A stretch of 64,000 nt of DNA from Acidobacteriota bacterium (lineage in GTDB: Bacteria > Actinomycetota > Acidimicrobiia > ATN3), in contig QEUQ01000006.1 in the NCBI GenBank assembly GCA_003577105.1, positions 14,286 to 78,285 on the forward strand, written 5' to 3'. Of the stretch, positions 1 to 20,976 are shown piece by piece. Below the pieces are notes generated by a model. It saw only the letters and a program-made list of their open reading frames with translations. It did not search any database and was not told where the DNA came from. Position 1 is the first letter of the stretch, and the number at the start of each line of letters is the position of its first letter. The translations under genes were made by a program, and so were the position numbers.

Positions 1-301
1 AGAGTCCGCAGAAGATGCAGCGCAACAAGTTGATCTCGTAGACGTAGCCGTAGCGCTCCCCAGGGGAAACGGGATTTCCGGGAGGATTGTCCTTGCCCCT
101 GACATAGATGCACTTGGCGGGGCAGACTGCGGCGCAAAGCTCGCATCCGATGCACTTCTCCATGCCGTCTGGATACCGGTTCAGCACATGCCTGCCATGA
201 AAGCGCACCGGCTTTTCCCGCACTTCCTTCGGATACTGGGTAGTCACCGGCTTGCGGAACATGTGCCGGAGAGTGACTGCGAAACCCGAGAACTTGCCCA
301 T
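1..301 (-). CDS. nuoI: NADH-quinone oxidoreductase subunit I (partial, runs off left edge)
   Basis: Manual translation from ATG at 301: [24 protein letters not shown]...[29 protein letters not shown]...[12 protein letters not shown]; NuoI 4Fe-4S motifs; follows nuoH. Confidence 0.95.
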
Positions 302-306
302 CAGGA

Positions 307-1371
307 TCAGCCCCCCGCCACGTGATTGGAGGCTTCGTTGATCCAAGCTTGGATCCCCGAGCTCAGCAACAACCAGACCAGGAGAACCGGTATCAGGCGC
401 TTCCAACCGAGGGACATGAGTTGGTCGTAGCGGAAGCGCGGGAGCGATGCTCGGATCCACATGAAGATGAAGACAAGAACTCCGGTCTTGGCGAAGAACC
501 AGAGCAACGGCCAAAGCCATGGCAGGAACGAGAAACCGGGGCCGTTCCAGCCGCCGAGAAAGACCGTGACGGCGATGGCCGAGATCGTGAACATGTTGGC
601 GAACTCGGCCAGGTAGAAGATCGCAAATCTGATGCCTGAATACTCGGTGTGAAACCCACCGACAAGCTCGGTTTCGGCCTCGACCAAATCAAATGGTGGC
701 CGGTTTGTTTCGGCGATGGCACAAATGAAGAATGCAAGCATCGGTATGACCTGAACCAGCCCGGTCCACCTGGGGACGAATCCGAGCCAAGTTCCGGATT
801 GAGCCTCGACCATGCCCCTCATGGAAAGCGTGCCCGTTGTCATAACCGCTGGTATCAGAGCGAGCCCCATGCAGGTCTCGTAGCTGATCATTTGAGCGCT
901 CGCGCGAATGCCGCCAATCAGTGGGTACTTCGACCCCGACGCCCATCCCGCAAGCGTGATGCCATAGACACCGATACTTGACATCGCCAGGAAGAAGAGG
1001 ATGCCAATGTTGAGGTCGGTGCCCTGGAGGAATATCTCGCGTCCGTTGATGGTGATTGAGTTACCGAAGGGGATGATCGCCACTACCAGAAACATTGGGA
1101 TCAACGAGAGAAGTGGCGCCAATATGTAGATAGGTCGGTCCACGGCTCGCGGAGTGACCGGCTCCTTGAAGAAGAGCTTGATCCCGTCAGCGAGCGTCTG
1201 GAGAATCCCCTTGGGGCCGGCCTGATTTGGCCCTATCCGAACCTGCATGAACGCAACGACTTTGCGCTCGATGTAGACGAGCGCCATCACGAGAATCAGG
1301 GTCGCGGCAAATAGGATGACGACCTTCAGGGCGCTTCCAAGAACCCACCAACCGTCGTGTGGCCCGGTCAT
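307..1371 (-). CDS. nuoH: NADH-quinone oxidoreductase subunit H
   Basis: [60 protein letters not shown] motifs. Confidence 0.97.
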
Positions 1372-3959
1372 GCGGGGCTCTCCAAGGTTTCGATCCGGAC
1401 CTCATTGACCGCGGCAGTCGAATCGATCAAGTCGGCGACGCGTATCGGGTGGAGCGCTGACTCGCCGGTTTCTTTCTCGTCTGCGCCTGAACTAGTTGCG
1501 ATCCGGTTGAACGGAACTGAAACACTTCCCTCCGGCACGCTGTCATCGGTCATGACTGCGATCTCGAGGTCCGCCCGCGCGCCTCTCAGACGCACGGCAA
1601 CGCCGTCTTCCACTCCTAGACGTGACATGTCGCGACTATTGAGGCGCGCGACGGCTTTCGTATCGATTCTGCGGAAGGCTGTACAGCGCCCGCTGACCTG
1701 GCCATCGCCATATAGCTTTCGACCGGCAATGACGCGGTGGTTGTACTGATCGGTTGCGATCGGCGGGTGTTCGATCTCTTGGGGGGCATAGGTGTCTGAT
1801 GCCCTCACCACGGTGCCCTTTGCCCCCTCGATGCTGGCCCGCGTCACCTCAGCGAACGCAGGGGCAGCTGCGGCCATCTCCTCGAAAACATCTTGATGGG
1901 AAGTCCAGCGCGCGGGTTTCCCAGAGATCCGAGAGGTCAGCTGATCCAGGAGATACCACTCGGGCTGTGAGCTGCCGGGGGGGGCAACTTTTGCCACTTG
2001 CCGCGTAACGCGCCCTTCGATATTGACGACGCAACCTGATTGCTCTCCGAAGGTCGCCGCAGGAAAGACGACGTCGGCCGCGGCAGCTGTCGGTGTCATG
2101 AAGATGTCAATCGCGACAATGAACCCAGTTCTGCCAATTGCCTCAAGACCAAGTGATCGGTCGGGGAAGTCGTCGATCAAGTCGGCACCCATGAGAACCA
2201 AGGCTCCCACGTTGCCCCTTGCTGCCTCTGTCACGATGCCGGAAGCATCGCGTCCCTCATGGCTCGGAACAGCCCGCCCCCACGCCTTTTCAATCGCTGC
2301 TCTTGATCCACCATCTCCATCTGCAAGGCGGGAACCGCCCGGGAGCAAGTCGGGTGCGCATCCGGCGAAAAGCGCACCCATCGTGTTCGCTCGATGCGCA
2401 ACTGGCAGAACTAGCCCCCCGATTGCCTCGGCCAGCTGTGTGGCCGAAGCACCCAGTTCGCCGTCGGACGTGGCGAGCCCGGTTCGCCCGGCAATCACGA
2501 CGGCGTTTTTGTCACAGGCCTCTGAAATGATCTCAACAGCTCTTTGAAAATCTGTTGCCGATGCTCCGGCTGGCGGGCGATCGGTGGGCTCCCGTTGGGC
2601 AGCGCCAGCGAGTGCGCTGAGAAGCTGCGCTGTCTCCCCTGCCCGATGGATGAGTGAAACCGCTGCATATCTGCTCAGTCCGGTCTGCATGGGCGAGCAC
2701 TCGATCAAGGGCACCCCATTCTTGAGTGCGGCTTGCTTCACCCTGAGATATAGGACCGGCAGCTCTTCTTTGAGGTCTGGACCCGCAACGACGATCGCGG
2801 CCGCCGAATCGAGATTGGCAATGCTCGCTCTGGGGTTCGCACCGACCAAAAAAGCTGCTTCGAGTCCGTCGCCGAGCTGAGCATCGACGTTGTTGGTCCC
2901 CGCGATGCGCGCTAGCTTGGAGAACGCATAGGCCGACTCGGTGGTAGAACGCGATCCACCAAGAAAGCCGAGAGCATCGGGGCCCTCCTTGGCTGCGCGC
3001 TTGATTCCGTCAGCCGCCGCGTCGAGTGCCTCGCCCCATGACGCTTCGACCAGCTCACCGTCTATTCGGATCATCGGAGCAGTCAGGCGGTCGTCATGAT
3101 GCAAATACTCGAATCCGAAGCGACCCTTGTCGCAGAGCCATCCCTGGTTGACCTCTTCAGAATCGACACCGAGGACTCGCAATACCCTGCTCGATGAGGA
3201 CTGGAGCTTGACCCGGCATCCAACCGCGCATTGAGCACAAGTGGATTCCACCTCTTCAAGATCCCATGGTCTCGCCTTGAAGCGATACGGAACGGCGGTC
3301 AGTGCTCCAACGGGGCAGGCCTCAATGGTGTTTCCCGAGAAGTACGACCGAAATGGCTCATCGGGGAAGGTCAAGACGTGCGTTCGATTGCCGCGCTCGA
3401 CAAAGGCAATCAAGGGGTCGCCTGCCACCTCATCGGCAAAGCGTGTGCAGCGATCACAAAGGATGCACCGCTCCCGGTCGAGCAGTACTAGCTCGCTTAG
3501 GGCAATCGGCTTCTCATAGTGGCGCTTCTCTTCGACAAAACGCGACTCACCCGGACCGTAAGCCATGGTCTGATCCTGCAGCGGGCACTCGCCACCTCTA
3601 TCGCAGACAGGGCAGTCGAGAGGATGGTTCGCCAGAAGTAGTTCAAGGACTGACTCTTGGACCTGTTGAACTATGGGAGTGTCAGTGTGAACCACCATCT
3701 CGTTTGAGCAGGGCGTGGTGCACGCTGGCGGAAGCCCCCGCTGGTCTTCGACTTCGACGAGGCACATGCGGCACTTGGCTACCGGCTTCATGCGCGGGTG
3801 CCAGCAGAAGTGGGGGATGTACTTACCAGCCTTGAGTGCTGCCTCTATGAGCAGGGTGCCAGGCTCGACCTCAGTTGTGACACCATCAATTGTCACCTTC
3901 AGACGTTCGGGGGAGGCTTGTGACTCCTCGGCCTCCGGACTCGCCTTTGTGTCAGCCAC
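1368..3959 (-). CDS. nuoG: NADH-quinone oxidoreductase subunit G
   Basis: CRMCLVE, HPLDCPVCDRGGECPLQD, CILCDRCTRF and CAQCAVGC...C Fe-S motifs, followed by a molybdopterin-oxidoreductase-like body. Confidence 0.96.
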   Translation of the reverse strand: MADTKASPEAEESQASPERLKVTIDGVTTEVEPGTLLIEAALKAGKYIPHFCWHPRMKPVAKCRMCLVEVEDQRGLPPACTTPCSNEMVVHTDTPIVQQVQESVLELLLANHPLDCPVCDRGGECPLQDQTMAYGPGESRFVEEKRHYEKPIALSELVLLDRERCILCDRCTRFADEVAGDPLIAFVERGNRTHVLTFPDEPFRSYFSGNTIEACPVGALTAVPYRFKARPWDLEEVESTCAQCAVGCRVKLQSSSSRVLRVLGVDSEEVNQGWLCDKGRFGFEYLHHDDRLTAPMIRIDGELVEASWGEALDAAADGIKRAAKEGPDALGFLGGSRSTTESAYAFSKLARIAGTNNVDAQLGDGLEAAFLVGANPRASIANLDSAAAIVVAGPDLKEELPVLYLRVKQAALKNGVPLIECSPMQTGLSRYAAVSLIHRAGETAQLLSALAGAAQREPTDRPPAGASATDFQRAVEIISEACDKNAVVIAGRTGLATSDGELGASATQLAEAIGGLVLPVAHRANTMGALFAGCAPDLLPGGSRLADGDGGSRAAIEKAWGRAVPSHEGRDASGIVTEAARGNVGALVLMGADLIDDFPDRSLGLEAIGRTGFIVAIDIFMTPTAAAADVVFPAATFGEQSGCVVNIEGRVTRQVAKVAPPGSSQPEWYLLDQLTSRISGKPARWTSHQDVFEEMAAAAPAFAEVTRASIEGAKGTVVRASDTYAPQEIEHPPIATDQYNHRVIAGRKLYGDGQVSGRCTAFRRIDTKAVARLNSRDMSRLGVEDGVAVRLRGARADLEIAVMTDDSVPEGSVSVPFNRIATSSGADEKETGESALHPIRVADLIDSTAAVNEVRIETLESPA

Positions 3960-10228: not shown

Positions 10229-11062
10229 TCAGCCGCCCGCGAGCGTGCGCTCGTATGCGACGACTGCCTCTAGCTCGTCCGGTGAGAGGATGCTCCCAAA
10301 AGCCGGCATCGAACCGCGTGCCGGGTTCTTGTTGGCGCCCCACCCGTCGGGGAAGGCGGCGTTGCCTTTCTTGACAAACTCAACTTGAGAGGCCGCTTCG
10401 GGGAAGTCCTTTAGCAACGTCGTGTTGTTGGCCTTGGAAAGCGGAAGGCCGACACCGCCCTGTCCTGTAGCTCCGTGGCACGCCGCACATTGCTTCTCAA
10501 AGACCGCCTTGCCGTCAGGACCCTTCTTGGAGACATCGGCCCCCGGCTCAGGCAGCGCAGAACCGTCGCACGCGATCAGCTGACCGTCATCACCGACGTT
10601 GAGCTTGCCGGCCTGCCCGCACCTAACGCCGCTTGAGAACTGGCCGAGGTAGACCATGGCAATCACCGGGAGAACAACAAAGGCAAGCACTAGCCACTTC
10701 GGCGCTCCGCTGGTGACAACCTCCTTGATGCCACCCGCAATCTCGCTCTGATCAGCTTCCGGATATGGCACCTCGCCAACTCCGACGAGATCAATTGCCG
10801 GCGCTACAAGAGCCTTGGCCTCGGCGACAGTGACCTCCCGGGGGGGCGCCGGTGTTGACGCTGGAGGAGTCGCGGGTGAAGCCGGTGATGCCGGTGATGC
10901 CTGTGAAGCGACAGCTTCCTGAGCCGGCTCTTCGGCCGCGCCGCCACCTCCAGCTTCGGCCGTCGGGGTGTCAGCCGCTTCGCCGCCCTCGTCGTCGCCA
11001 CCCTCCGACTTGGAGCGTGCGGCCTGCGAGCGCTTCAGCAGATGCTCGGGGATCTCTACCAT
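10229..11062 (-). CDS. Membrane-anchored monoheme cytochrome c with long N-terminal low-complexity tether
   Basis: One TM helix (WLVLAFVVLPVIAMVYL), CAACH heme motif, GSMPAF axial Met; N-terminus MVEIPEHLLKRSQAAR followed by an acidic Ala/Pro linker. Confidence 0.9.
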   Translation of the reverse strand: MVEIPEHLLKRSQAARSKSEGGDDEGGEAADTPTAEAGGGGAAEEPAQEAVASQASPASPASPATPPASTPAPPREVTVAEAKALVAPAIDLVGVGEVPYPEADQSEIAGGIKEVVTSGAPKWLVLAFVVLPVIAMVYLGQFSSGVRCGQAGKLNVGDDGQLIACDGSALPEPGADVSKKGPDGKAVFEKQCAACHGATGQGGVGLPLSKANNTTLLKDFPEAASQVEFVKKGNAAFPDGWGANKNPARGSMPAFGSILSPDELEAVVAYERTLAGG

Positions 11063-11077: not shown

Positions 11078-13009
11078 CTATTTCAGAGTGGACAGATAGC
11101 TGACGAGGTTCTGCATCTCTTCGTCTGAGAGATGTGAATACGAGGGCATCACCGACCAGTCGGCGGTCTCGTGCGGATCCTTCAGATGCGCTATGAGGGC
11201 ATCGGCATCTTTGGTTCCGTCGCGGCCGGCAAAGTGGGTTAGGTCAGGTCCGATACGACGGGTACCCATCATCTGGGGGTCGTCAAACGCGTAGTCGCCG
11301 GGAACGGAAACGGCACCGAGATATGCGTCGGCCTCGACGGGGCGGACTACCTGAGTATGGCAATTCCAACAACCCTCTCTCGCATAGATCAGACGCCCCT
11401 TGGCCTCGGGAGTATCGAGATTTGGAGCCGCTACCTGGCGTTCGTTGCCCAGCTTCGTCGGAGTCGTGAAGCTCTCGTTGGCGACTGGCAATGAGACCGC
11501 AAGCCACAGCCCCAAGCCGAAAATGACCGCTGATGCAACAAGTACCGCGGGTGCACTCTCTCTCTTCTCGCCCTCGCCGGCATCATCAAATGGCACAAGC
11601 CGCTCGCGTGCACCAAGCTCGCCCCCCATGACGGTTCGCACCAGGTTTGTGAGGAAGACCAGCGCTGCCACGGCGACAATTGCGATTCCAACCACGCGCA
11701 TAGTGGAGAACCACCTGAGCGGTTCGGCGACTCCTTGCCAAGCTGACCCAGTGACGACGGGTTTGGCATTGGTCGCGCCCGCCTGCCAAATGAATCCTGT
11801 TACGGCGCCACCGACCCAGGCCCCGGCCGCCAAAGTGACAACGCCTACGACCGTCAGGCCCAAATGCCAGTTGGCCAAGCTCGTCGAGACCCACTGACGG
11901 CCCGTCACCCTCGGGATCACCTCGTAAACGGATCCAGCAGCCCAGCACGAGAGGCCACCAATCAAGAGCAGTTCCGTATTGCCGAGTAGGAAGTCGGTCA
12001 GTCCGACGATCTGCTGGCTACTGCGGAGCGCGCCGAGAGGCATCATCAGCGAGTAGAGAAAGAGGAGTCCCCCGCCGGCCACGAAGAACCTGACAGGGAC
12101 CGAGCGCCCGACAGTTCCCCAGCGCCCCTTGAGGCTTCTGCTCAAGTTTGAGAGAACGGTCCACACCGGAATCGCACTCACGATCGAGAAGGCTATGGCG
12201 ATCGACTGGAGGCTCTCCTGCCCTGGACCAAAGATGCCGCGAATCTGCCCTGTGAATACCCAGAAGATCACTAGCGACCAAAAACCCACCATGGCAATCC
12301 GGCGAGAATAGAGCGGGGCACCGGCGATCTTTGGAATGAAGTAGTAGACAGCGCCAATCCCCGCTGCGAGCAGCCAGAGGCCTGCGACGTTCTGCGCATA
12401 GAAATTGGCCTGCGTTGACTGCCCAACACCCGCGTAAATCGGGAGGTTCGCCGCGACAATCATTATCGGAAGGGCTATGACAGCGAGACCGAAGTACCAG
12501 AGCGACGGATAGATTTGCGGTTCGGCCCGCTTAAGGATTGTGCCCACGACGGCCGCGGCAGTAACCAGGGACGAAATCACCAAGACTGCCGCAATGTAAA
12601 TGGGGAACTCGAGAAACTGCTGCCCTCCCCCAAAGCCAGCTCCTATCGCGCATATACCCGCTAGCGTGCCAAGGAACCAAAGCAGCGCGTTTCCCTTCAA
12701 TGCGGCCTCAGCAACGAGTGACGTACCGCAAAGCCTAGGAACGACGTAAATCGCTGCGGCGGTCAAAGCCATCGAAAGCCAGCCATAGAGGATCGCATCG
12801 AGGAACATCGATTGCGCTCGCCCATACGCGAGGAATGACAGCCCACCTAGCAAGTCCGGATAGATCAGCTGTGCGGCAGCTAGAAATCCGATGACAGCCC
12901 CGACTGCCAGCCAGATCCCCGAGAGGACCAAATACAGCTTGGCCGCCGAATCACCGCGGCTGCCGCTGTCGGAGTTTGAGGACTCACTCACTTCGGGTTC
13001 TTCAGTCAA
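11078..13009 (-). CDS. cbb3-type oxidase CcoN-like/CcoO fusion with degenerate (His-less) CcoN domain
   Basis: CcoN-like segments (YGRAQSMF, IYPSLWYF, YYFIPK...PLYS, TDFLLGN, YEVIPR) and intact CcoO (GRLIYAREGCWNCHTQVVRP, GTRRIGPDL, HLKDP, SVMPSY); start TTG at 13009 with GAGGG (ORF track extends to 13075). Confidence 0.88.
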   Translation of the reverse strand: MTEEPEVSESSNSDSGSRGDSAAKLYLVLSGIWLAVGAVIGFLAAAQLIYPDLLGGLSFLAYGRAQSMFLDAILYGWLSMALTAAAIYVVPRLCGTSLVAEAALKGNALLWFLGTLAGICAIGAGFGGGQQFLEFPIYIAAVLVISSLVTAAAVVGTILKRAEPQIYPSLWYFGLAVIALPIMIVAANLPIYAGVGQSTQANFYAQNVAGLWLLAAGIGAVYYFIPKIAGAPLYSRRIAMVGFWSLVIFWVFTGQIRGIFGPGQESLQSIAIAFSIVSAIPVWTVLSNLSRSLKGRWGTVGRSVPVRFFVAGGGLLFLYSLMMPLGALRSSQQIVGLTDFLLGNTELLLIGGLSCWAAGSVYEVIPRVTGRQWVSTSLANWHLGLTVVGVVTLAAGAWVGGAVTGFIWQAGATNAKPVVTGSAWQGVAEPLRWFSTMRVVGIAIVAVAALVFLTNLVRTVMGGELGARERLVPFDDAGEGEKRESAPAVLVASAVIFGLGLWLAVSLPVANESFTTPTKLGNERQVAAPNLDTPEAKGRLIYAREGCWNCHTQVVRPVEADAYLGAVSVPGDYAFDDPQMMGTRRIGPDLTHFAGRDGTKDADALIAHLKDPHETADWSVMPSYSHLSDEEMQNLVSYLSTLK

Positions 13010-13113
13010 TGCTCGCCCCTCAATTTCTGGAACGCGACATGAAATCGCTGCGGCGTCGGAGCTCCAAAGGCCCACGAAACGCTCCTGCTGCCGCGCCGGG
13101 CACTTGGCGCGGG

Positions 13114-13159: not shown

Positions 13160-14017
13160 CTAGGTGCCTGCGTACGAGTGCAAGCCGGCAATCCAAAGGT
13201 TGACGGCGTAGAAATTCACAAGGATCGCCACCCCTCCGACTATCGCCAGTATTGCCGCGCCCCGCCCGCGCCAGCCTTGCGTCGCTCGAGCATGTAAGTA
13301 CGCGGCAAATATCATCAGAACGATGAAGGACATCGTCTCTTTGGGATCCCAGCCCCAGTAGCGGCCCCAGGCTTGCTCGCCCCAAATCGCTCCAGCGATG
13401 ACTCCCAGCGTCCAGATCGGGAATGCAAACATGATCATTCGGTACGAGGCCTGATCCAGGCGATCCGCGCTCGGCAAGCGCGAGACAAGCCCCCCATCAC
13501 TGGTGTCCTCGTCTGCAAAATCTGGATGCCTCGCCTCCCACCGACGCCGAACCAAGTACATGACCTCCAAGATCGCACCAAACAAGAGAAGTGATGCCCC
13601 GGCCATGACGAGAAAGACATGAAATGTCAGCCAGTTACTTCGAAGCGCCGGTTGGAGTTCGCCAGGATCGGCGTAAATGACCCAGCCGACCGACATAAGA
13701 ATCGCCGCGGCGGCAGCCACATATCCCCCGAGCGCCGTGAGGCCGAACTTGGCCTGACCTACGAACAAGTAGGCGGTGATCAACACGAAGGCCAGCGATG
13801 CCGTGAACTCATACATGTTCCCCCACGGTGCGTGCTCCGCCGCAAGGGTTCGGGTTATCAGAGAGAGGAGGTGAAGCGCCCATCCCAGCGAGAGAACGGC
13901 TGTGGCAAAGACCTTCCACTTACGCGTGCGCCAGGCGACGAAGCCGAAGTACCCCCCAGCCGCGACGAAGTAGAGGACGAGCGCCGACACGAAAGCTGCG
14001 TTTGATGTGCGATTCAA
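13160..14017 (-). CDS. resC: System II cytochrome c synthase ResC/CcsA
   Basis: WWD motif WGEQAWGRYWGWDPKET, HAPWGNMYE, conserved His (LTFHV, AYLH, GLHSY); TTG start overlaps the resB stop. Confidence 0.94.
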   Translation of the reverse strand: MNRTSNAAFVSALVLYFVAAGGYFGFVAWRTRKWKVFATAVLSLGWALHLLSLITRTLAAEHAPWGNMYEFTASLAFVLITAYLFVGQAKFGLTALGGYVAAAAAILMSVGWVIYADPGELQPALRSNWLTFHVFLVMAGASLLLFGAILEVMYLVRRRWEARHPDFADEDTSDGGLVSRLPSADRLDQASYRMIMFAFPIWTLGVIAGAIWGEQAWGRYWGWDPKETMSFIVLMIFAAYLHARATQGWRGRGAAILAIVGGVAILVNFYAVNLWIAGLHSYAGT

Positions 14018-15642
14018 CGAGTTGCCTTCTTTGCGACTGAGCCGGCCCCTCGAAGTGCGTCTGTGAGATCCGTTTCGATGCGCAAGAACTCCTCCTCGAA
14101 TATGTCCTTGCGCTGATATGCGACCCCGCCGAAGCGTAGCACCACCCCTTCGGTCCCACCCTCGACAACTTCGAACCAAAGTCGGCGCCGGTATGCGTAA
14201 AGCGCCGGATACAGACTGAGCATCATCACTGCGGCGGCGGCGGCGGCAACCGGAGTCCCGTAAGAGTCGCGCTTCACCGAGAAGACCGTGAAGCGCCTGA
14301 GGTCTATGAGTTCAACGTTGAGGCCGCCTCCAAGCTGAGTTGAGGTGCCCAGCTTCTCGTTGGCATTCGCAGGGAAGGTGGCGAACTTCTGTGCGACCTG
14401 TTCCAGGCCCGTCTTGTCGAGTTCATAGACGTTTTGCGGTTTGTCTAGTCCGAGGTCTCCCCGATACTCAGTCACGACGACGAGCGGGCGCTCGCCAAAG
14501 TCTCCAGTACTGATGAGGTCAAGAGCACCGGGCTCCCTAGCTCGGGGATCATCGGGATTGGTGGCGCGAAAGGGAACCAGCTTGAAATCGGGAAAGAGTG
14601 AGAGCTCCAGACCCACCGAGCCTGAGGCGGTGGAGGGCAACTTGATGACGCCGGCACTCGAGCCATTGGGGCCGCGCATTCCCAAGACCAATGGGCCGTC
14701 GTAAACGACGGTGCTTCCGTCGGTAACACGCACGACTGGGGCCCAGCCGTATCCGAGTTGGTAAAGCTTGACTCCCTTATAGGAGACGGGCTTGTTCACC
14801 CGCACTTCGTCCTCGAGGACCTCCCTGCCGTCGTCGAGGATCTTCACGCGTGAGGTGTAGCTCTTGGGCATGCCGTCGTCGCCGTAGGCGACATCGAAAT
14901 CCTCTACGGCGACGGTGAATCCAGCGTGAGGGTTGATCCATCGGGCGAAGGCACCCTCGCTGTACTCGTCGAAATTGACCCGGCCTCCCTCTACCCAGCT
15001 TGTCTTCTCGACTACCACCGCGCTTCCCTCGAATTTTGTGGTGATCGTCAGAGCTGCGGCCAGTGCCACCAAGAAGAATGACCAGTGAAACAGGACACTC
15101 CCTGTCTCGCGTGAGTGACCTCGCTCGGCGATCCACTGGTTCGCCCCATTGACTGGTGATGACCGCCAGCGTCTGCGGCCGAGAACCCGCCGCGCCTCTG
15201 TCACCGTTTCATCTGAACTCAGCTCCGATTCAACCTCGGTCGTGAAGCGGAGATCTGGGAGGCGGCCTCGCTCCGGTGCTTGCTTGATGCGACGCGCGTG
15301 GGAGAGAGCGGCCCGGGTCCTAGGTATCAGACATGCGCCGGTCACAAATAAAAGAAAGCCGGCCAGGGCGAGAAACCACCAGGAGGTGAAGACCTGAAAC
15401 AGGCCGAGGCGATCGAAAACCTCTCCCCAGAAGCGATGCTCCTCGATGAACTGGGCCACTTTCGAGGGCGCGGCGCTTCGCTGAGGAATCACACTGCCCA
15501 GAAGCGAGACGATCGCTACGGCGATGAGAAGCTGAATGGCAGTCCGCATCGAACGCAGGCGACGCCAGCCGTGCATGCGCTCCATAGCCCTAGGCGGCAC
15601 CGGCTCTGCTCCGAAGTCCTCACTCTCGTTCGATTCAGTCAA
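14014..15642 (-). CDS. resB: System II cytochrome c biogenesis protein ResB/Ccs1
   Basis: LRSMRTAIQLL...GSVIPQ, FTSWWF, GSVLFH, VRVNKP...YQ; large extracytoplasmic domain; between resA and resC. Confidence 0.92.
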   Translation of the reverse strand: MTESNESEDFGAEPVPPRAMERMHGWRRLRSMRTAIQLLIAVAIVSLLGSVIPQRSAAPSKVAQFIEEHRFWGEVFDRLGLFQVFTSWWFLALAGFLLFVTGACLIPRTRAALSHARRIKQAPERGRLPDLRFTTEVESELSSDETVTEARRVLGRRRWRSSPVNGANQWIAERGHSRETGSVLFHWSFFLVALAAALTITTKFEGSAVVVEKTSWVEGGRVNFDEYSEGAFARWINPHAGFTVAVEDFDVAYGDDGMPKSYTSRVKILDDGREVLEDEVRVNKPVSYKGVKLYQLGYGWAPVVRVTDGSTVVYDGPLVLGMRGPNGSSAGVIKLPSTASGSVGLELSLFPDFKLVPFRATNPDDPRAREPGALDLISTGDFGERPLVVVTEYRGDLGLDKPQNVYELDKTGLEQVAQKFATFPANANEKLGTSTQLGGGLNVELIDLRRFTVFSVKRDSYGTPVAAAAAAVMMLSLYPALYAYRRRLWFEVVEGGTEGVVLRFGGVAYQRKDIFEEEFLRIETDLTDALRGAGSVAKKATR

Positions 15643-16168
15643 TCGATCCCCCCGCCCGGGCGTACTCGATCATGCAGCTGAGGTCTGTCTTCTCGATCGG
15701 ACCCGGTATTGAGGCAACGACCCTCCCGTCGCGTGCGACAACAAAGGTTGACGGAGGGGCAGTCACCTTCCAAGTCGCGGCGAGTGCGGCCTCCCGGTCA
15801 TATATCGACGGAAAGGGAACGTCGAACTCGCGCTCAAAGGCTGCTGCCGCTGCCCTGTCATCGCGAATGTTCACCCCGATAAATTGGACTCCCTGAGATG
15901 ACAGCTCCCGGGCCGCTGCTGCGAGCATCGGGGTCTCCGTCCGGCAGGGGCCACACCACGACGCCCAAAAGTTCACCACGGTGACCTGTCCGGCAGTGCT
16001 CACAAGTGATACGGGGGTCTCGCCGGTCACGGGAGGCCCTTCGGTATTGGGAGCGGGACTGTCCCGAGAGATCACCCGACCGCTGCAAATCGCTGCCTCC
16101 CCGGAAGTGCAAGCCGGCAGAAGCATGATCAGCGCGACAAGTCCAAGAGAGAGCCGGCGCCGCGTCAT
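15635..16168 (-). CDS. resA: ResA/TlpA thiol-disulfide oxidoreductase (lipoprotein)
   Basis: VNFWASWCGPCRTE; LPAC lipobox. Confidence 0.9.
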   Translation of the reverse strand: MTRRRLSLGLVALIMLLPACTSGEAAICSGRVISRDSPAPNTEGPPVTGETPVSLVSTAGQVTVVNFWASWCGPCRTETPMLAAAARELSSQGVQFIGVNIRDDRAAAAAFEREFDVPFPSIYDREAALAATWKVTAPPSTFVVARDGRVVASIPGPIEKTDLSCMIEYARAGGSID

Positions 16169-16670: not shown

Positions 16671-17078
16671 ATGGCCCGCGGAATCGTCACCGGATTGCCG
16701 GATACATTCACGGACTACGAGGTCGAGCTGATCGATCCCGGAACCCTGGAGAAGTCCGTACGCCCCAAGCAGTTCCTCCACATTGACCAGGAGGAATGCA
16801 TTATGTGTGAAGGGTGTGTGGACATTTGCCCGTGGCGGTGCATCCACATGCTCTCGACCGATTCGGTTCTGGACGCCGAAGGAATTGAGCGGCCCGGGGA
16901 GGATCCCGAGGACCACGTCGTCTTTGTTGTCGACGAAGACGAATGCACACGATGTCAACTTTGCGTGGACCGCTGCCCAACGGGCGTAATCATGCTCGGC
17001 AAGGTCGGCTTGGCGGTGCGCGGCGATACACATTCCAGAGACCAGAGGCACGGGTACGCATATGGCGTCAGGTTCTGA
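16671..17078 (+). CDS. 2[4Fe-4S] dicluster ferredoxin
   Basis: CIMCEGCVDICP and CTRCQLCVDRCP. Confidence 0.92.
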   Translation: MARGIVTGLPDTFTDYEVELIDPGTLEKSVRPKQFLHIDQEECIMCEGCVDICPWRCIHMLSTDSVLDAEGIERPGEDPEDHVVFVVDEDECTRCQLCVDRCPTGVIMLGKVGLAVRGDTHSRDQRHGYAYGVRF

Positions 17079-17121
17079 CGCGATGGCGGCTCGTACAGGA
17101 AGACACCGGAGGTAGTTCCAA

Positions 17122-17904
17122 GTGGCCAACGGAAACGGCGGCCTCGGCAGCAAGCTGTCCGATAAGGGAAAGCAGCTGACCGAGAAGGTCCAGTCGAGCC
17201 AGGCATGGACCTCCATTTTCCGCCCTGGTTCGATCTTCTCAAAGGGCTACTCCGACAGCCCTCGAAATCGCTCGTACGTGATCATGAACTCCCTCGTCTA
17301 TCACCTCCATCCGGTGAAGGTGAAGCGTCACGGGGTGAAGGTCAGCTACACGCTCTGCTTGGGTGGCCTTTCGTTTTTTCTGTTCATAGTCCTCACGATC
17401 ACGGGCATCTTCCTGATGTTCGTTTATCGGCCTACCGAAGCTCAGGCCTATCCGGACATGCAGGCCATGATGACCTCGGTTGCGTTCGGGACCCTCGTGC
17501 GAAATATGCACCGCTGGGGAGCGCACCTCATGGTGATCTCGGTCTTCTTGCACATGGCCCGCGTCTTTTACCACGGTGCGTACAAGTCGCCGCGTGAGTT
17601 CAACTGGGTCATTGGAGTCCAGCTCCTCATGCTCACACTCCTGCTCTCCTTCACGGGATACCTGCTTCCGTGGGATCAGCTGAGCCTCTGGGCCGTCACG
17701 GTGGGTACCAACATGATGGGCTACACACCCGTCTTCGGCCGCGAGATGCGTTTCGTTCTTCTCGGGAGTACGGAGATTTCCACCAACACCCTGCTTCGCT
17801 GGTATGTACTCCACGTGATCATGCTCCCATTCGTAGCCGTCATCTTCATGGCCATCCATTTCTGGAGAGTGCGCAAAGACGGCGGCATTTCCGGTCCGCT
17901 CTAG
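17122..17904 (+). CDS. Cytochrome b, short b6-type subunit of a Rieske/cyt b complex
   Basis: TLCLGG, RNMHRWGAHLMVISVFLHM, FTGYLLPWDQ, WYVLHV...AIHFWRVRKDGGISGPL. Confidence 0.93.
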   Translation: MANGNGGLGSKLSDKGKQLTEKVQSSQAWTSIFRPGSIFSKGYSDSPRNRSYVIMNSLVYHLHPVKVKRHGVKVSYTLCLGGLSFFLFIVLTITGIFLMFVYRPTEAQAYPDMQAMMTSVAFGTLVRNMHRWGAHLMVISVFLHMARVFYHGAYKSPREFNWVIGVQLLMLTLLLSFTGYLLPWDQLSLWAVTVGTNMMGYTPVFGREMRFVLLGSTEISTNTLLRWYVLHVIMLPFVAVIFMAIHFWRVRKDGGISGPL

Positions 17905-17922
17905 GCTGAGGTTCGAACGCCA

Positions 17923-18609
17923 ATGGTTGAAATACCAGAACACCTGCTGAAGCGCTCGCAAGCAGCGCGAAACAAGGCCGAATCGGACGGCGACGAAGCT
18001 CCAGCTGAAGATGCGGCGCCAGAAGCCGCGGAGCCGGCCAAGGTCGCCACAGCCACAGAGGCCGCGCCGCCGAAGCCGAAGAAGTCCGGAAACGGCGGCG
18101 GAGCCGCAACCAAGCTCCACACCCACCGATTGCTCACGGTAGTCAAGTCGGGCTCTATTCAGCCGCCCAAACCCGCACCGGTGGACAAGGTCAACGTCTG
18201 GCCGCACCTACTGGTGATTGAGTTTCTTGCGCTCTTGGCCTGCATGGTGTTCCTGGTGCTCTTCAGCATCTTCGTAAACGCGCCCTTGCTCGAAGAGGCC
18301 AACTACAACAAGACGCCGAACCCGTCGAAAGCGCCCTGGTACTTCCTTGGCCTCCAAGAACTGCTGGCCTACTTCGATCCGATGATTGCGGGGGTGACGA
18401 TTCCAGGCATGGGTCTGATCGGTCTCGCGCTTGCGCCGTATATCGACAAGAACCCGAGCAATCACCCCGAAGACCGCAAGTTCGCGATAGCGCTCTTCAC
18501 CTTTTTCATGATGTTTTGGACGGTCCTGGTGATCATCGGGTCGTTCTTCAGAGGTCCGGGCTACAACTTCGCGTGGCCCTGGGCCGATGGGATCTACTTC
18601 GACTTATGA
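17923..18609 (+). CDS. Cytochrome b subunit IV (PetD/QcrC-like C-terminal part)
   Basis: VWPHLL, TPNPSKAPWYFLGLQELL (Qo motif variant), PYID; N-terminal tether identical in its first 16 aa to the protein at 10229-11062. Confidence 0.9.
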   Translation: MVEIPEHLLKRSQAARNKAESDGDEAPAEDAAPEAAEPAKVATATEAAPPKPKKSGNGGGAATKLHTHRLLTVVKSGSIQPPKPAPVDKVNVWPHLLVIEFLALLACMVFLVLFSIFVNAPLLEEANYNKTPNPSKAPWYFLGLQELLAYFDPMIAGVTIPGMGLIGLALAPYIDKNPSNHPEDRKFAIALFTFFMMFWTVLVIIGSFFRGPGYNFAWPWADGIYFDL

Positions 18610-18619
18610 GGTCAGACGC

Positions 18620-19438
18620 GTGACAACTCGCCAACTCCTCCTTATAGCAATACCCACAGGGCTCGCCTTGCTTGTTCTGTTTGGAATAGTCGTTGCCGCT
18701 TCGCGGCGAGAGTCTGACCTCGAGCTCGGGCGGGACGAGGCCGAACGCGAAGCAGCTCTGGCTGCAGTACCAGGCGGTTCCTCCTCGGGTAGCCGGACTC
18801 GCAAGAAGACCGCCCCTGGCAACGTCGAGATGGAGAAGGTCACGCCCAAGTTCGATCCCGAACTCGAAGGGATGACCAGGCGCCAGGTCCTGAACCGGGG
18901 GATCGTTCTCGCTGCGCTCACGGGCCTTGCGGCGTTCGGCGGTGCGTGCCTCGCCTTCCTTTGGCCCAAGCTCTCGGGGGGATTTGGCTCGGTGATATCG
19001 GCCGGCAATATCAATGAGATAAAGGCACAGATCAAGAACGACAAGGCGCCCTTCTACAACCCCAGCGGGCGCTTCTATCTGATGACCTATGAAACCGAGC
19101 TCGACAATGCCGAAGGGGAAGTGCTCTACCCGACAGTCTTCACGCAGTTCAAAGAGACGGGCCTAATTGCGATGTACCAGAAGTGCCCGCACCTCGGATG
19201 CAGAGTGCCGTGGTGCAGCACTTCGCAGTGGTTTGAGTGCCCTTGCCACGGATCGAAATACAACTCCGCTGGTGAATGGACAGGCGGACCGGCACCACGC
19301 GGCATGTGGCATTTCCCGATCAAGCTGAACGGCGAGCAAGTCTCGGTGGACACCGGAACTCAAGTTGAAGGCCCGCCGAAGGGCACCTCGACTCCGGTTA
19401 ATGCCGAAGCCAAAGGCCCGCACTGCGTCGGGATTTAG
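18620..19438 (+). CDS. Rieske 2Fe-2S subunit
   Basis: KCPHLGC and ECPCHGSKY; internal Tat motif MTRRQVL + TM; extra N-terminal TM; GTG start with GAGGT upstream. Confidence 0.93.
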   Translation: MTTRQLLLIAIPTGLALLVLFGIVVAASRRESDLELGRDEAEREAALAAVPGGSSSGSRTRKKTAPGNVEMEKVTPKFDPELEGMTRRQVLNRGIVLAALTGLAAFGGACLAFLWPKLSGGFGSVISAGNINEIKAQIKNDKAPFYNPSGRFYLMTYETELDNAEGEVLYPTVFTQFKETGLIAMYQKCPHLGCRVPWCSTSQWFECPCHGSKYNSAGEWTGGPAPRGMWHFPIKLNGEQVSVDTGTQVEGPPKGTSTPVNAEAKGPHCVGI

Positions 19439-19482
19439 AAGTAGCTGTAGGACTGAAAAATGTACGGAGACCGGACTAGCAA

Positions 19483-20445
19483 ATGAACTCAAGCTTGACC
19501 CTGATCCTCGTGGCCGGCGTCGTGCTCTTTCTCGGCGCTGGATTCCTGTTCTTCTCTGGAACAGGGCCGCGCAAACCGAAGAAGGTAATACCGGCAAATC
19601 AGAAGCGTTACCACGACGACGAAACCCTCGAGGGGCCTGTGCTCACCAAGATCCTCGGGTGGTCGCTCATCTTCACTTTCATGCTTGCAGCGGCGCTACC
19701 GCTCTATTGGCTGACGGAACCACAGCGCCAGGTCAGCTTTGCCGAGAAGTACAACCACAATGCGGCCGAACGCGGCAAGAAGTTCTTTGCGGACGCAAAG
19801 GAAGATCCGGAGGGATTCGGGTGCGCCACGTGCCACGGAGGCGTCAAGGGCGGAACGACCCGATACGTGCTGCTTTCGGGGCCGGAAGAAGGCCGTGAAG
19901 TCACGTGGACCGCGCCCGCGCTCGATGACATCTTCTATCGCTTCAGCCGCGATCAAGTGCATGACATCCTTGTATATGGGCGTCCAAACACACCGATGCC
20001 TGCCTGGGGATTGCGAGGCGGCGGCCCGATGACCGAGCAAATGCTCAACGACGTCATTTCCTATCTTGAATCGATTCAGACCGATCCTGAGACAGCCAAG
20101 CAGAATGCCGGCGGAGGACAGGGTCTCTCGGGTCAGAAGCTCTTCGAGAAGAATTGCGCGCGGTGCCATACGCAAGGGTGGAGCTACAGGTATCCGGACG
20201 TGACCTGGAACAAGCCGGTCGTCATGGGGCCGGCGGGTGGAGGTTCTTTTGGGCCGAACTTGCGGGGATCCGTAACCCGCCAGTTCTACGACCCCGCCGA
20301 TCAAGTCAAATTCGTCTCTGACGGAAGCCAGTTCGGCAAGGCATACGGGCAGAACGGAGTCGGAACTGGGCGCATGCCGGGCATGGGGAAGATCCTCGAT
20401 GAAAAGGACATCATGGCAATCGTCGAATATGAGCGGAGTCTGTAG
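19483..20445 (+). CDS. Membrane-anchored diheme cytochrome c
   Basis: CATCH and CARCH, PMPAW and RMPG Met ligands, two N-terminal TM segments. Confidence 0.92.
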   Translation: MNSSLTLILVAGVVLFLGAGFLFFSGTGPRKPKKVIPANQKRYHDDETLEGPVLTKILGWSLIFTFMLAAALPLYWLTEPQRQVSFAEKYNHNAAERGKKFFADAKEDPEGFGCATCHGGVKGGTTRYVLLSGPEEGREVTWTAPALDDIFYRFSRDQVHDILVYGRPNTPMPAWGLRGGGPMTEQMLNDVISYLESIQTDPETAKQNAGGGQGLSGQKLFEKNCARCHTQGWSYRYPDVTWNKPVVMGPAGGGSFGPNLRGSVTRQFYDPADQVKFVSDGSQFGKAYGQNGVGTGRMPGMGKILDEKDIMAIVEYERSL

Positions 20446-20976
20446 ATGTATCTGATAGCTTCAGCCGCAGCCTCAAAGCTCTCACCCACAGCGCTCTTCA
20501 TGCGCGGGGTGATCGTAGTCATCGCTGCTTTCGTGATCTTCGTCGGTTCGGTCTGGCTTGTCCTCATGACTGACGTCGGGGCCAAGAAGGCCATCATGCT
20601 CGTCTTGACGGTGCTTTTCGCATTTATCTCGATGCTCTCGTTGCTCTGGTTCAGATATCCACAGCAAGCGCCAACACCCCATGGAACAGTCTGCCTTGGC
20701 GGCAAGGTCAATCCGGCCTTCGAGGAGAATGGTGGTGCAGCCGGGGAATCGTCTGTCAGCGTCAAGAAGAATGTCGGTGGATCCGAAGTCGATGAGAAGA
20801 TCAGTGCCTGCGAATCTGGCGTCTTCTTTACGAAGTACTTCTACCCAACCATCTTCCTTGTGACCAGTATCGTCCTCTCGCTGATTTCGGCGACTGGGCT
20901 GAATCGGATTGAGAAGGCCGAGAAGCTCGCCGATGAACTCGAGGCCGCTGGCGAGCTAGAGGCCGCCACCGCCTAA
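20446..20976 (+). CDS. 3-TM hypothetical membrane protein, last gene of the bc operon
   Basis: Starts directly after the cytochrome c stop; three hydrophobic segments; Cys pair in the loop. Confidence 0.75.
   Translation: MYLIASAAASKLSPTALFMRGVIVVIAAFVIFVGSVWLVLMTDVGAKKAIMLVLTVLFAFISMLSLLWFRYPQQAPTPHGTVCLGGKVNPAFEENGGAAGESSVSVKKNVGGSEVDEKISACESGVFFTKYFYPTIFLVTSIVLSLISATGLNRIEKAEKLADELEAAGELEAATA

Follow-up and report, generated by a model that had tools for sequence, protein, structure and literature searches.

The closest described relatives of the gene analysed here are CcoN and CcoO of the cbb3-type haem-copper oxidases (3MK7, 5DJQ) and their fused form CcoNO (NF011053). In a stretch of 64,000 nucleotides from an Acidimicrobiia genome (contig QEUQ01000006.1 of assembly GCA_003577105.1), which we call the window, the minus-strand gene at 11078-13009, here named psCcoNO, encodes a protein that resembles these subunits in its homology to both (1.3e-42 and 1.4e-14, respectively), in its 12-helix fold, in the CXXCH plus Met motif of its CcoO part, and in the N-to-O fusion order of CcoNO. 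The next gene downstream encodes a membrane cytochrome c that takes the place of the third cbb3 subunit, CcoP, and for which a CcoP-like contact is predicted. Unlike cbb3 CcoN, however, psCcoNO lacks the six metal-ligating histidines, the cross-link tyrosine and further polar residues that are otherwise invariant, and it scores below the curated cut-offs. Compared with a cbb3 oxidase, the C-terminal third of CcoO is also missing, the partner cytochrome c has one haem domain and not two, and the 95%-complete window genome gave no match to FixS/CcoS. Our data support the view that psCcoNO is a retained pseudoenzyme and not a decaying gene.

Altered active sites are known from other descendants of oxygen reductases. 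The families cNOR, qNOR, NOD, eNOR, sNOR, gNOR and nNOR share with psCcoNO the oxygen-reductase descent and changed active-site residues, and among the new families, some lack the tyrosine or have an altered metal ligand set and are still haem enzymes, according to the portion of the study that was accessible (PMC11214002). These families keep haems and a metal site and remain enzymes, as far as that portion describes them, whereas psCcoNO has lost every ligand. A second point of reference is provided by the bc1-cbb3 supercomplexes of Rhodobacter capsulatus (6XKW) and Pseudomonas aeruginosa (8SMR), in which a cbb3-type module is joined to a Rieske/b complex via membrane-anchored c-type cytochromes, and both of these structures are among the best sequence and fold matches of the window protein. 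In the supercomplexes, cbb3 is the terminal oxidase, whereas here a separate aa3/caa3 oxidase exists, and it is the gene order that suggests an association. No family of His-less CcoN proteins is described in the full-text literature that we searched, which did not cover subscription journals.

When the window protein was compared by phmmer with all PDB chains, the top match was CcoN of the Pseudomonas stutzeri cbb3 oxidase (3mk7_A, 1.3e-42). In this alignment, all six metal-ligating histidines and the cross-link tyrosine are replaced, at the following sites (canonical motifs in brackets):

12797-12823, minus strand: GRAQSMFLD (GRLRPLHTN), first low-spin haem b ligand site, His to Phe
12380-12406, minus strand: NFYAQNVAG (WWYGHNAVG), first CuB ligand site, His to Gln
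12239-12265, minus strand: FWVFTGQIR (YIWAGPHH), cross-link Tyr to Trp, and CuB His-His to Ile-Arg
11972-12004, minus strand: GLTDFLLGNTE (HYTDWTIGHVH), haem b3 and second haem b sites, His to Asn and Glu

Furthermore, KEYAE of 3mk7_A is aligned with QQFLE. The assignment of each histidine to its metal and the P. stutzeri numbering follow the literature. An earlier note on this DNA had recognized five motif substitutions by eye, and the HMMER alignment to 3mk7_A reproduces every one of them; its claim of a single histidine in the membrane part also holds, as H404 (in NWHLG) is the sole histidine within residues 1-555 (residues of the window protein, P0001, are numbered in the 665-aa frame described below). 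As a control for the ligand columns, we used 36 ligand-intact relatives from the same homologue search. The columns of the haem b3 ligand and of the three CuB ligands are 100% His in this set, and those of the two low-spin haem b ligands are 100% and 89% His, so that five of the six columns are invariant; the Tyr column is conserved to 97%. Because the columns are near-invariant in the intact relatives, the loss at all seven of them is not alignment noise. Judged from the sequence, the binding of a low-spin haem b and of a haem b3-CuB centre at their usual sites is impossible, as is a cross-linked tyrosine, and with these sites gone psCcoNO should be incapable of reducing O2 or nitric oxide (NO).

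The open reading frame (ORF) that encodes this protein is intact, and its parts can be assigned as follows (TM, transmembrane):

11078-13075, minus strand: ORF of 665 aa from GTG
11078-13009, minus strand: psCcoNO, ligand-free CcoN-CcoO fusion gene, 643 aa from a TTG start, stop codon at 11078-11080
11621-12946, minus strand: CcoN-like 12-helix membrane domain, aa 44-485 (Pfam, 3mk7_A alignment, AlphaFold2/Foldseek)
11483-11554, minus strand: predicted TM helix anchoring the CcoO part, aa 508-531 (DSSP helix in the AlphaFold2 model)
11081-11410, minus strand: CcoO-like monohaem cytochrome c core, aa 556-665 (FixO, PDB CcoO matches, motifs)
11357-11371, minus strand: CWNCH, aa 569-573
11240-11257, minus strand: RIGPDL, aa 607-612
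11138-11155, minus strand: SVMPSY, aa 641-646

The TTG at 13009 lies 6 nt after GAGGGG and agrees with the start of the homologue P0004; it is probably the true start, with the GTG at 13075 as the alternative. Pfam COX1 covers aa 44-444 (E=2.2e-40, profile positions 2-415 of 436), and FixO (PF02433) covers aa 557-655 (E=6.8e-24, profile positions 50-146 of 219), where its 85 bits exceed the cut-off of 29.6. The best NCBIfam model is NF011053, the fused cbb3 subunit I/II, at 258.8 bits and far under its cut-off of 1080, and the two single-subunit models likewise stay below theirs (TIGR00780 for ccoN, 165.1 against 583.15 bits; TIGR00781, the CcoO equivalog, 79.3 against 200.65 bits). In the AlphaFold2 model, the helix at aa 508-531 is predicted to bring the chain back to the outer face, where the CcoO part follows. 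This part is confined to the haem-binding core: it aligns to residues 53-147 of a 203-residue PDB CcoO chain (phmmer 1.4e-14), and about a third of canonical CcoO, at the C-terminus, is missing. The open frame and the preserved TM pattern that the earlier note had described are thus borne out by the 665-aa ORF and the predicted 12-helix CcoN fold, whereas its 'intact CcoO' needs to be qualified: CWNCH, RIGPDL and SVMPSY are present, including the Met of SVMPSY, which from the alignment we take to be the axial haem c ligand, but only in a core that lacks the C-terminal part.

The window protein is not an isolated case. We searched 1.84 billion cluster representatives exhaustively with HMMER, which gave 2732 relatives at E<=1e-3, and the best 150 of these, together with 13 matches of a word-indexed search, were classified by the seven columns. 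Among the 144 rows that were long enough to be judged, 86 have at most one of the six histidines, 36 have at least five, and 22 are intermediate. In a FastTree phylogeny, 69 of the 86 His-poor rows form one clade (support 98), all members of which are ligand-free and which includes the window protein; these 69 rows are cluster representatives at 50% identity. An IQ-TREE analysis of 67 sampled rows under a site-heterogeneous model placed all 28 sampled clade members on one side of a branch, with a Shimodaira-Hasegawa-like approximate likelihood ratio test (SH-aLRT) value of 98. These comparisons indicate that the clade of ligand-free CcoN is old. Both trees also show ligand loss in at least two further places, nested among intact oxidases, which points to several independent losses in the C family and to a general phenomenon.

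Some of these other homologues deserve mention in their own right. P0085, P0101, P0111, P0120 and P0125 are ligand-free homologues in a clade that is nested among intact cbb3 oxidases, and a ligand-free CcoN homologue is also encoded at 285-1760 (plus strand) of locus L071, from a metagenome-assembled genome (MAG) of the Chthoniobacteraceae (Verrucomicrobiota), which was outside the trees. In a separate clade, represented by P0080, P0139, P0150, P0140 and P0126 (also L155 and L163), histidine is mostly left at just two of the six columns, the first and the last, which are those of the low-spin haem ligands; the ligands of the binuclear centre are gone, and two intact oxidases nest inside the clade. 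These two-His CcoN homologues are possibly haem-b-only electron carriers. FastTree makes them the sister of the ligand-free clade (support 83), a placement that IQ-TREE does not resolve, and a stepwise loss from intact via haem-b-only to ligand-free forms is an idea that we do not claim.

Despite the loss of all ligands, the fold appears to be that of CcoN. The AlphaFold2 model of the window protein, built with a 69-row alignment, has a mean predicted local distance difference test score (pLDDT) of 90.9 and a predicted template modelling score (pTM) of 0.92, and Foldseek against the PDB ranks three CcoN chains of 3mk7 first, with target TM-scores of 0.91-0.92 and root mean square deviations of 2.2-3.1 Å. 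Leu, Gly, Pro, Phe and Ser are the only residues that reach 70% conservation in the 69-member clade without doing so in intact CcoN, and the clade alignment contains no clade-specific conserved polar, charged or metal-binding residue. Further polar residues that are invariant in intact CcoN are lost (equivalent to positions 88, 134, 153, 189, 236, 310, 338, 344, 358 and 460 of P0001). The former ligand positions differ freely among subclades and are mostly Ala, Gly or Ser, and in the clade comparison none of the seven sites shows a conserved substitute ligand. A loop insertion at aa 436-445 with a conserved Gly is specific to the clade. Taken together, the alignment gives no sign of a new conserved site.

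The gene is evidently maintained. We estimated the ratio of nonsynonymous to synonymous substitution rates (dN/dS) by the Nei-Gojobori method for ligand-free orthologues in congeneric pairs from four genera in two other families of the phylum. For the CcoN-like gene, dN/dS was 0.065-0.161 in eight pairs, with a synonymous divergence (dS) of 0.30-1.36, and for the adjacent haem-binding CcoO-like gene, it was 0.087-0.227 in congeneric pairs. For four homologues with 74-91% overall identity to the window protein, the identity is 76-92% over the CcoN part and 77-95% over the CcoO part, and even between families, at 20-41% identity, the reading frame is uninterrupted. Even a genome of about 1.1 Mb (G040) retains a divergent ligand-free copy, together with CcoO-like and cytochrome c genes; this copy has three histidines in its 477-residue open frame, none of them at the ligand columns. 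We reject recent decay because of the depth of the clade, the intact frames and the dN/dS values. The checks that the earlier note had proposed on these points had different outcomes: the predicted structure agrees with the P. stutzeri cbb3 fold, and the orthologues in the other families are under purifying selection, but the replacing residues (Gln, Asn-x-Glu, Arg) are not conserved, as these sites vary and mostly hold Ala, Gly or Ser. Searches of other sequence collections added little. A metagenome scan with the single window protein found no relative, and a scan with an alignment as the query found one locus of 30% identity; most of what a genome-contig scan with a different alignment returned were ordinary CcoNO fusions of other phyla, with the pattern HHYHHHH in 80 of 83 ORFs, and these served as a control only. 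The window organism, an Acidimicrobiales-like actinobacterium to judge from the sources of cytochrome b6 relatives at 79-80% identity, occurs in bioreactor sludge metagenomes (all of the runs being DNA), and contigs from public runs gave only short fragments that are identical to the window, with no listed differences.

The partner in the place of CcoP is encoded directly downstream of psCcoNO:

10229-11062, minus strand: membrane cytochrome c, 277 aa (Pfam Cytochrom_C, 8.3e-14)

It has a single TM helix and a single c-haem domain, preceded by a cytoplasmic motif at the N-terminus (MVEIPEHLLKRSQAAR), and its gene adjoins psCcoN/O in nine loci of the class and in L118. We predicted the complex of psCcoNO (aa 35-665) and this cytochrome c (aa 100-277), each supplied as an alignment, alongside three controls. 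The predicted contact scored 0.76 and the best control 0.00; 58 of 80 solved complexes attained this mark, as did 2 of 110 mismatched pairs. The runs agreed in at least 89% of the contacts, with a partner pLDDT of at least 79. In the predicted complex, the helix of the cytochrome c (aa 124-146) is packed against aa 287-314 in the membrane domain, and its linker touches the CcoO part. As cbb3 structures with CcoP have already been solved, the contact shows a likeness to the CcoN-CcoP pair and not binding. The 277-aa cytochrome c is compatible with being a CcoP-like partner in a CcoN-CcoP-like arrangement, and its binding is a prediction.

The genes around this pair are those of electron transport. 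On the minus strand, the order in the window is ResA-like, ResB, CcsB, psCcoNO, the 277-aa cytochrome c, a geranylgeranyl-reductase-like flavoprotein (GGR), nuoA and nuoB, and the divergent plus strand encodes a 129-aa membrane protein, a ferredoxin, cytochrome b6, subunit IV (SUIV), the Rieske protein, a dihaem cytochrome c and a 176-aa protein:

13160-14179, minus strand: CcsB, system II cytochrome c maturation, directly upstream of psCcoNO (Pfam Cytochrom_C_asm, 2.5e-45)
14014-15642, minus strand: ResB (Pfam ResB, 1.6e-86)
15635-16168, minus strand: ResA-like thiol-disulfide oxidoreductase (Redoxin, 1.2e-24)
16671-20445, plus strand: Rieske/cytochrome b operon, divergent to psCcoNO (Pfam, NCBIfam ExtP/ExtQ), comprising the next five genes
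16671-17078, plus strand: 2x[4Fe-4S] ferredoxin, 135 aa (Pfam)
17122-17904, plus strand: cytochrome b6 (Pfam, NCBIfam)
17923-18609, plus strand: SUIV, with the shared N-terminal motif described below (Pfam)
18587-19438, plus strand: Rieske protein (Pfam)
19483-20445, plus strand: dihaem cytochrome c (Pfam)

This arrangement is conserved. Among the other genomes of the class, 15 of 40 match the window protein at E<=1e-10 (16 of 41 including the window genome), and we examined the nine loci with ordinary matches plus that of the 1.1-Mb genome G040, whose match is weak. In all nine and in G040, ligand-free psCcoN(O) and the cytochrome c gene stand divergent to the operon for ferredoxin, b6, SUIV, Rieske protein and dihaem cytochrome c, and in the nine, CcoO is either fused to psCcoN or encoded directly after it. 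The weak matches in 1.1-Mb genomes are no more than about 4 kb away from cytochrome b6. Cytochrome b6 itself is present in 41 of 41 genomes of the class, at 71-89% identity. When the upstream regions from match-less genomes of the class were searched with a hidden Markov model (HMM) of the clade, 14 of 14 contained no psCcoN, and a fifteenth, that of G040, holds the divergent copy; in the regions without psCcoN, the gene of the cytochrome c or that of the flavoprotein adjoins the ferredoxin gene. Because these 14 regions lack psCcoN, the module is accessory. In the phylum, 33 of 301 genomes have a match (a tally that includes G117). Among 16 loci from other classes, 11 have no ligands of the binuclear centre, three show the ordinary HHYHHHH pattern, and two are intermediate. 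The 11 ligand-poor loci adjoin the Rieske/b operon or its usual neighbours: seven show Rieske/b genes within the DNA examined, and the other four GGR/nuo or cytochrome c maturation genes. The three ligand-intact copies have multihaem partners and are located elsewhere. The downstream one-helix cytochrome c was not found in the 11 ligand-poor loci.

A possible further link between the module and the Rieske/b complex is an N-terminal sequence motif. The first 16 residues of the cytochrome c (11015-11062, minus strand) and of SUIV (17923-17970, plus strand) are identical (MVEIPEHLLKRSQAAR), and since the DNA of this stretch is identical at only 38 of 48 positions, it is not a recent copy. The relatives L095-L103 and L118 share a motif of about 35 residues with the consensus ..PExLxxRSAxARA......LAxWAG, which in these loci occurs only at the cytoplasmic N-termini of SUIV, of the cytochrome c and of a split CcoO-like protein. 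Three of four relatives with fused CcoO, which leaves CcoO no free N-terminus, have two or three tandem copies of the motif on the cytochrome c, and the window has one. In G040, about 66 N-terminal residues are the same in the CcoO-like protein as in the cytochrome c. The motif matches no Pfam family at E up to 1. It hints at a common cytoplasmic partner for the Rieske/b subunits and the pseudo-cbb3 module.

The redox domain that is carried by the membrane domain can differ between relatives. In the nearest homologues beyond the immediate group, namely P0006 (57% identity), P0007 (40%) and the copy of G001, which is the one other genome belonging to the order, the ligand-free membrane domain ends in a type-1 cupredoxin and not in CcoO, and these cupredoxins keep the Cu-ligand pattern H...C..H..M; in more distant clade members, CcoO is fused or encoded as the next gene. 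The window genome has one ordinary A-type oxidase, which is encoded on another contig, and its CoxB (L105:7349-8404, contig C77 of the window genome, G000) has a C-terminal plastocyanin/amicyanin-like cupredoxin (aa 256-348). In G001, ligand-free CcoN and CcoO-like genes bracket the caa3 operon, in the order psCcoN-cupredoxin, CoxB with a cytochrome c domain, CoxA, CoxC, CoxD, CtaG, a separate psCcoO and cytochrome c. The cupredoxin of the window-genome CoxB and that of the G001 psCcoN are 38% identical (E=3e-22) and have the same ligand pattern. One type of carrier is therefore found on psCcoN in G001 and on subunit II in the window genome, and this fusion-swap argument for proteins that work side by side is suggestive of such a relationship between psCcoN and the oxidase subunit II.

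We consider it about an even bet that psCcoNO has no catalytic role and serves as a 12-helix scaffold, on which c-haem or copper carriers are held in the electron path from the Rieske/b complex to the aa3 oxidase. In this CcoN descendant, selection would preserve the membrane platform and its cargo, which is a CcoO-type c-haem domain in the window genome and a type-1 cupredoxin in some relatives. The one-helix cytochrome c from the next gene would dock on the platform as CcoP does on CcoN, and the resulting haem-c-only 'CcoNOP-like' module would be an accessory electron-relay subunit. In Acidimicrobiia-type actinobacteria, it would lie between the Rieske/cytochrome b6 complex and the aa3/caa3 oxidase or be attached to them. 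We infer the physical association of the module with both complexes, and likewise the direction of electron flow. The platform itself must matter, since about 440 membrane residues are kept at a dN/dS near 0.1, even in a genome of 1.1 Mb. Of the earlier note's proposal of a repurposed pseudoenzyme, the retention stands (old clade, dN/dS, fold, and ligands of the redox domain), and among the roles that it had listed, scaffold, channel, quinone-binding or regulatory subunit, the scaffold fits best, because the clade-specific residues are only Gly, Pro, Leu, Phe and Ser, the carrier is swapped, and the CcoP-like contact passes the controls; nothing in the data points specifically to the other three roles. 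In mitochondrial complex III, the peptidase-like core proteins are non-catalytic enzyme homologues that serve as structural subunits. The scaffold would be alike in that an enzyme fold is kept for structure; the fold and the organisms are different, and for psCcoNO, membership of an assembly is itself a deduction.

Several observations weigh against such a scaffold. The complex prediction may be a recall of the solved cbb3 structures, the sequence alone would permit a His-less binding of some cofactor, and the dN/dS values come from orthologues in other families and not from the window gene itself. The caa3 genes lie inside the cluster in one genome only (G001), and the Rieske/b complex manages without the module, as b6 is present in 41 of 41 genomes and a psCcoN match in 16 of 41. 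The neighbourhood also contains nuo, GGR-like, cytochrome c maturation and haem synthesis genes, and with such mixed respiratory neighbours, the synteny could mean a conserved 'respiratory island' and not a shared complex.

Other explanations have to be measured against the same data. The membrane domain might have acquired a new function, in that its emptied cavities bind quinone, lipid or another cofactor or conduct protons or ions, with the attached c-haem or copper domain feeding or sensing the new site. The selection on the membrane domain, which equals or exceeds that on the haem c domain, would suit this idea, as would the clade-specific loop with its conserved Gly and the small residues at most former ligand sites, which could leave cavities; against it, the clade has no specifically conserved polar, charged or metal-binding residue, the ex-ligand residues vary freely between subclades, and many invariant polar residues of intact CcoN are lost, which argues against a retained proton path. 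We regard such a neo-functionalisation as unlikely, though it is the strongest of the competitors. Less probable still is an assembly or maturation factor that chaperones c-type cytochromes or the aa3 oxidase. It would explain the place of the gene after ResA-ResB-CcsB, an adjacent and co-directional arrangement that the window shares with G001 and with four loci of another family, and in G001 the gene precedes coxB, while CtaG precedes psCcoO; yet seven of the nine class relatives have no adjacent maturation gene, whereas the Rieske/b operon is adjacent in all. An assembly factor would also not need a redox domain of its own with intact ligands, and haem-handling proteins usually use conserved histidines, of which the membrane domain has none.

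To the same low degree, we credit the possibility that the protein is a free-standing anchored cytochrome c or cupredoxin that shuttles to other acceptors, with the CcoN remnant as a large anchor only. The interchangeable carrier domain and the many genomes of the class without the module are in line with this, but one helix suffices as an anchor, as the neighbouring 277-aa protein demonstrates, and a mere anchor does not account for a membrane domain of about 440 residues that is kept at such a low dN/dS, also in the 1.1-Mb genome. That the gene was recently inactivated, or encodes an oxidase that is still active with unconventional ligands, is highly improbable: many lineages of the class no longer have the family, but all 69 clade representatives, each of a 50% identity cluster, lack the ligands, the frames are intact across families of 20-41% identity, dN/dS is 0.065-0.161, no alternative ligand is conserved at the seven sites, and a FixS/CcoS match is absent from the 95%-complete genome.

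Beyond the scaffold as such, a more far-reaching architecture can be imagined, which we put forward as a tentative and rather doubtful possibility. The gutted cbb3 would be the hub of an as yet unseen supercomplex, joining the ferredoxin-bearing Rieske/b6 complex to the aa3/caa3 oxidase by electron hops through c-haems and a blue-copper domain that the dead oxidase carries, with the shared tag of about 35 residues pinning the parts to one partner; an ancestral bc-cbb3 supercomplex would then have kept its oxidase as wiring. This reading predicts a new and testable supercomplex architecture in a widespread, mostly uncultured class of actinobacteria. If the general view of psCcoNO is true, it is a clear case of a haem-copper oxidase subunit I that has been kept for millions of generations without a redox cofactor of its own, and a pseudoenzyme in the central respiratory machinery would be a natural experiment on what the scaffold of subunit I does apart from catalysis.

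There is also a consequence for genome annotation. Members of the family are labelled in the source and Joint Genome Institute (JGI) annotations as 'cbb3-type cytochrome oxidase subunit 1', as 'subunit I/II', or as I/plastocyanin. On the strength of annotation alone, cbb3 oxidases are also listed for actinobacterial bins in a MAG study, in the part that was accessible (PMC8357290). Where annotated cbb3 genes belong to the ligand-free family, the inference of a high-affinity, microaerobic respiration would be wrong. Scoring the six His columns would correct such cbb3 annotations.

Some minor observations concern the neighbouring genes. The window genome has a single marginal match to FixH (21.2 bits), which we do not interpret. 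ResB and CcsB, taken as their longest ORFs, share 166 nt (14014-14179), and the CcsB start is probably downstream of the TTG at 14179. The plus-strand genes at 16671-20976 encode a Rieske/b complex of the type with split b6 and SUIV; the 129-aa membrane protein before the ferredoxin gene and the 176-aa protein after the dihaem cytochrome c belong to no family. In NCBIfam, b6 scores 301.7 bits (cut-off 290) with the model named 'selenite/tellurite reduction operon cytochrome ExtP', a label that looks over-specific for a general respiratory complex that is present in 41 of 41 genomes of the class. In family f27 (L155-L160, L166), about 5 kb of genes lie between the CcoO-like gene and a stand-alone cupredoxin-like gene, which precedes the GGR-like gene and nuoA.

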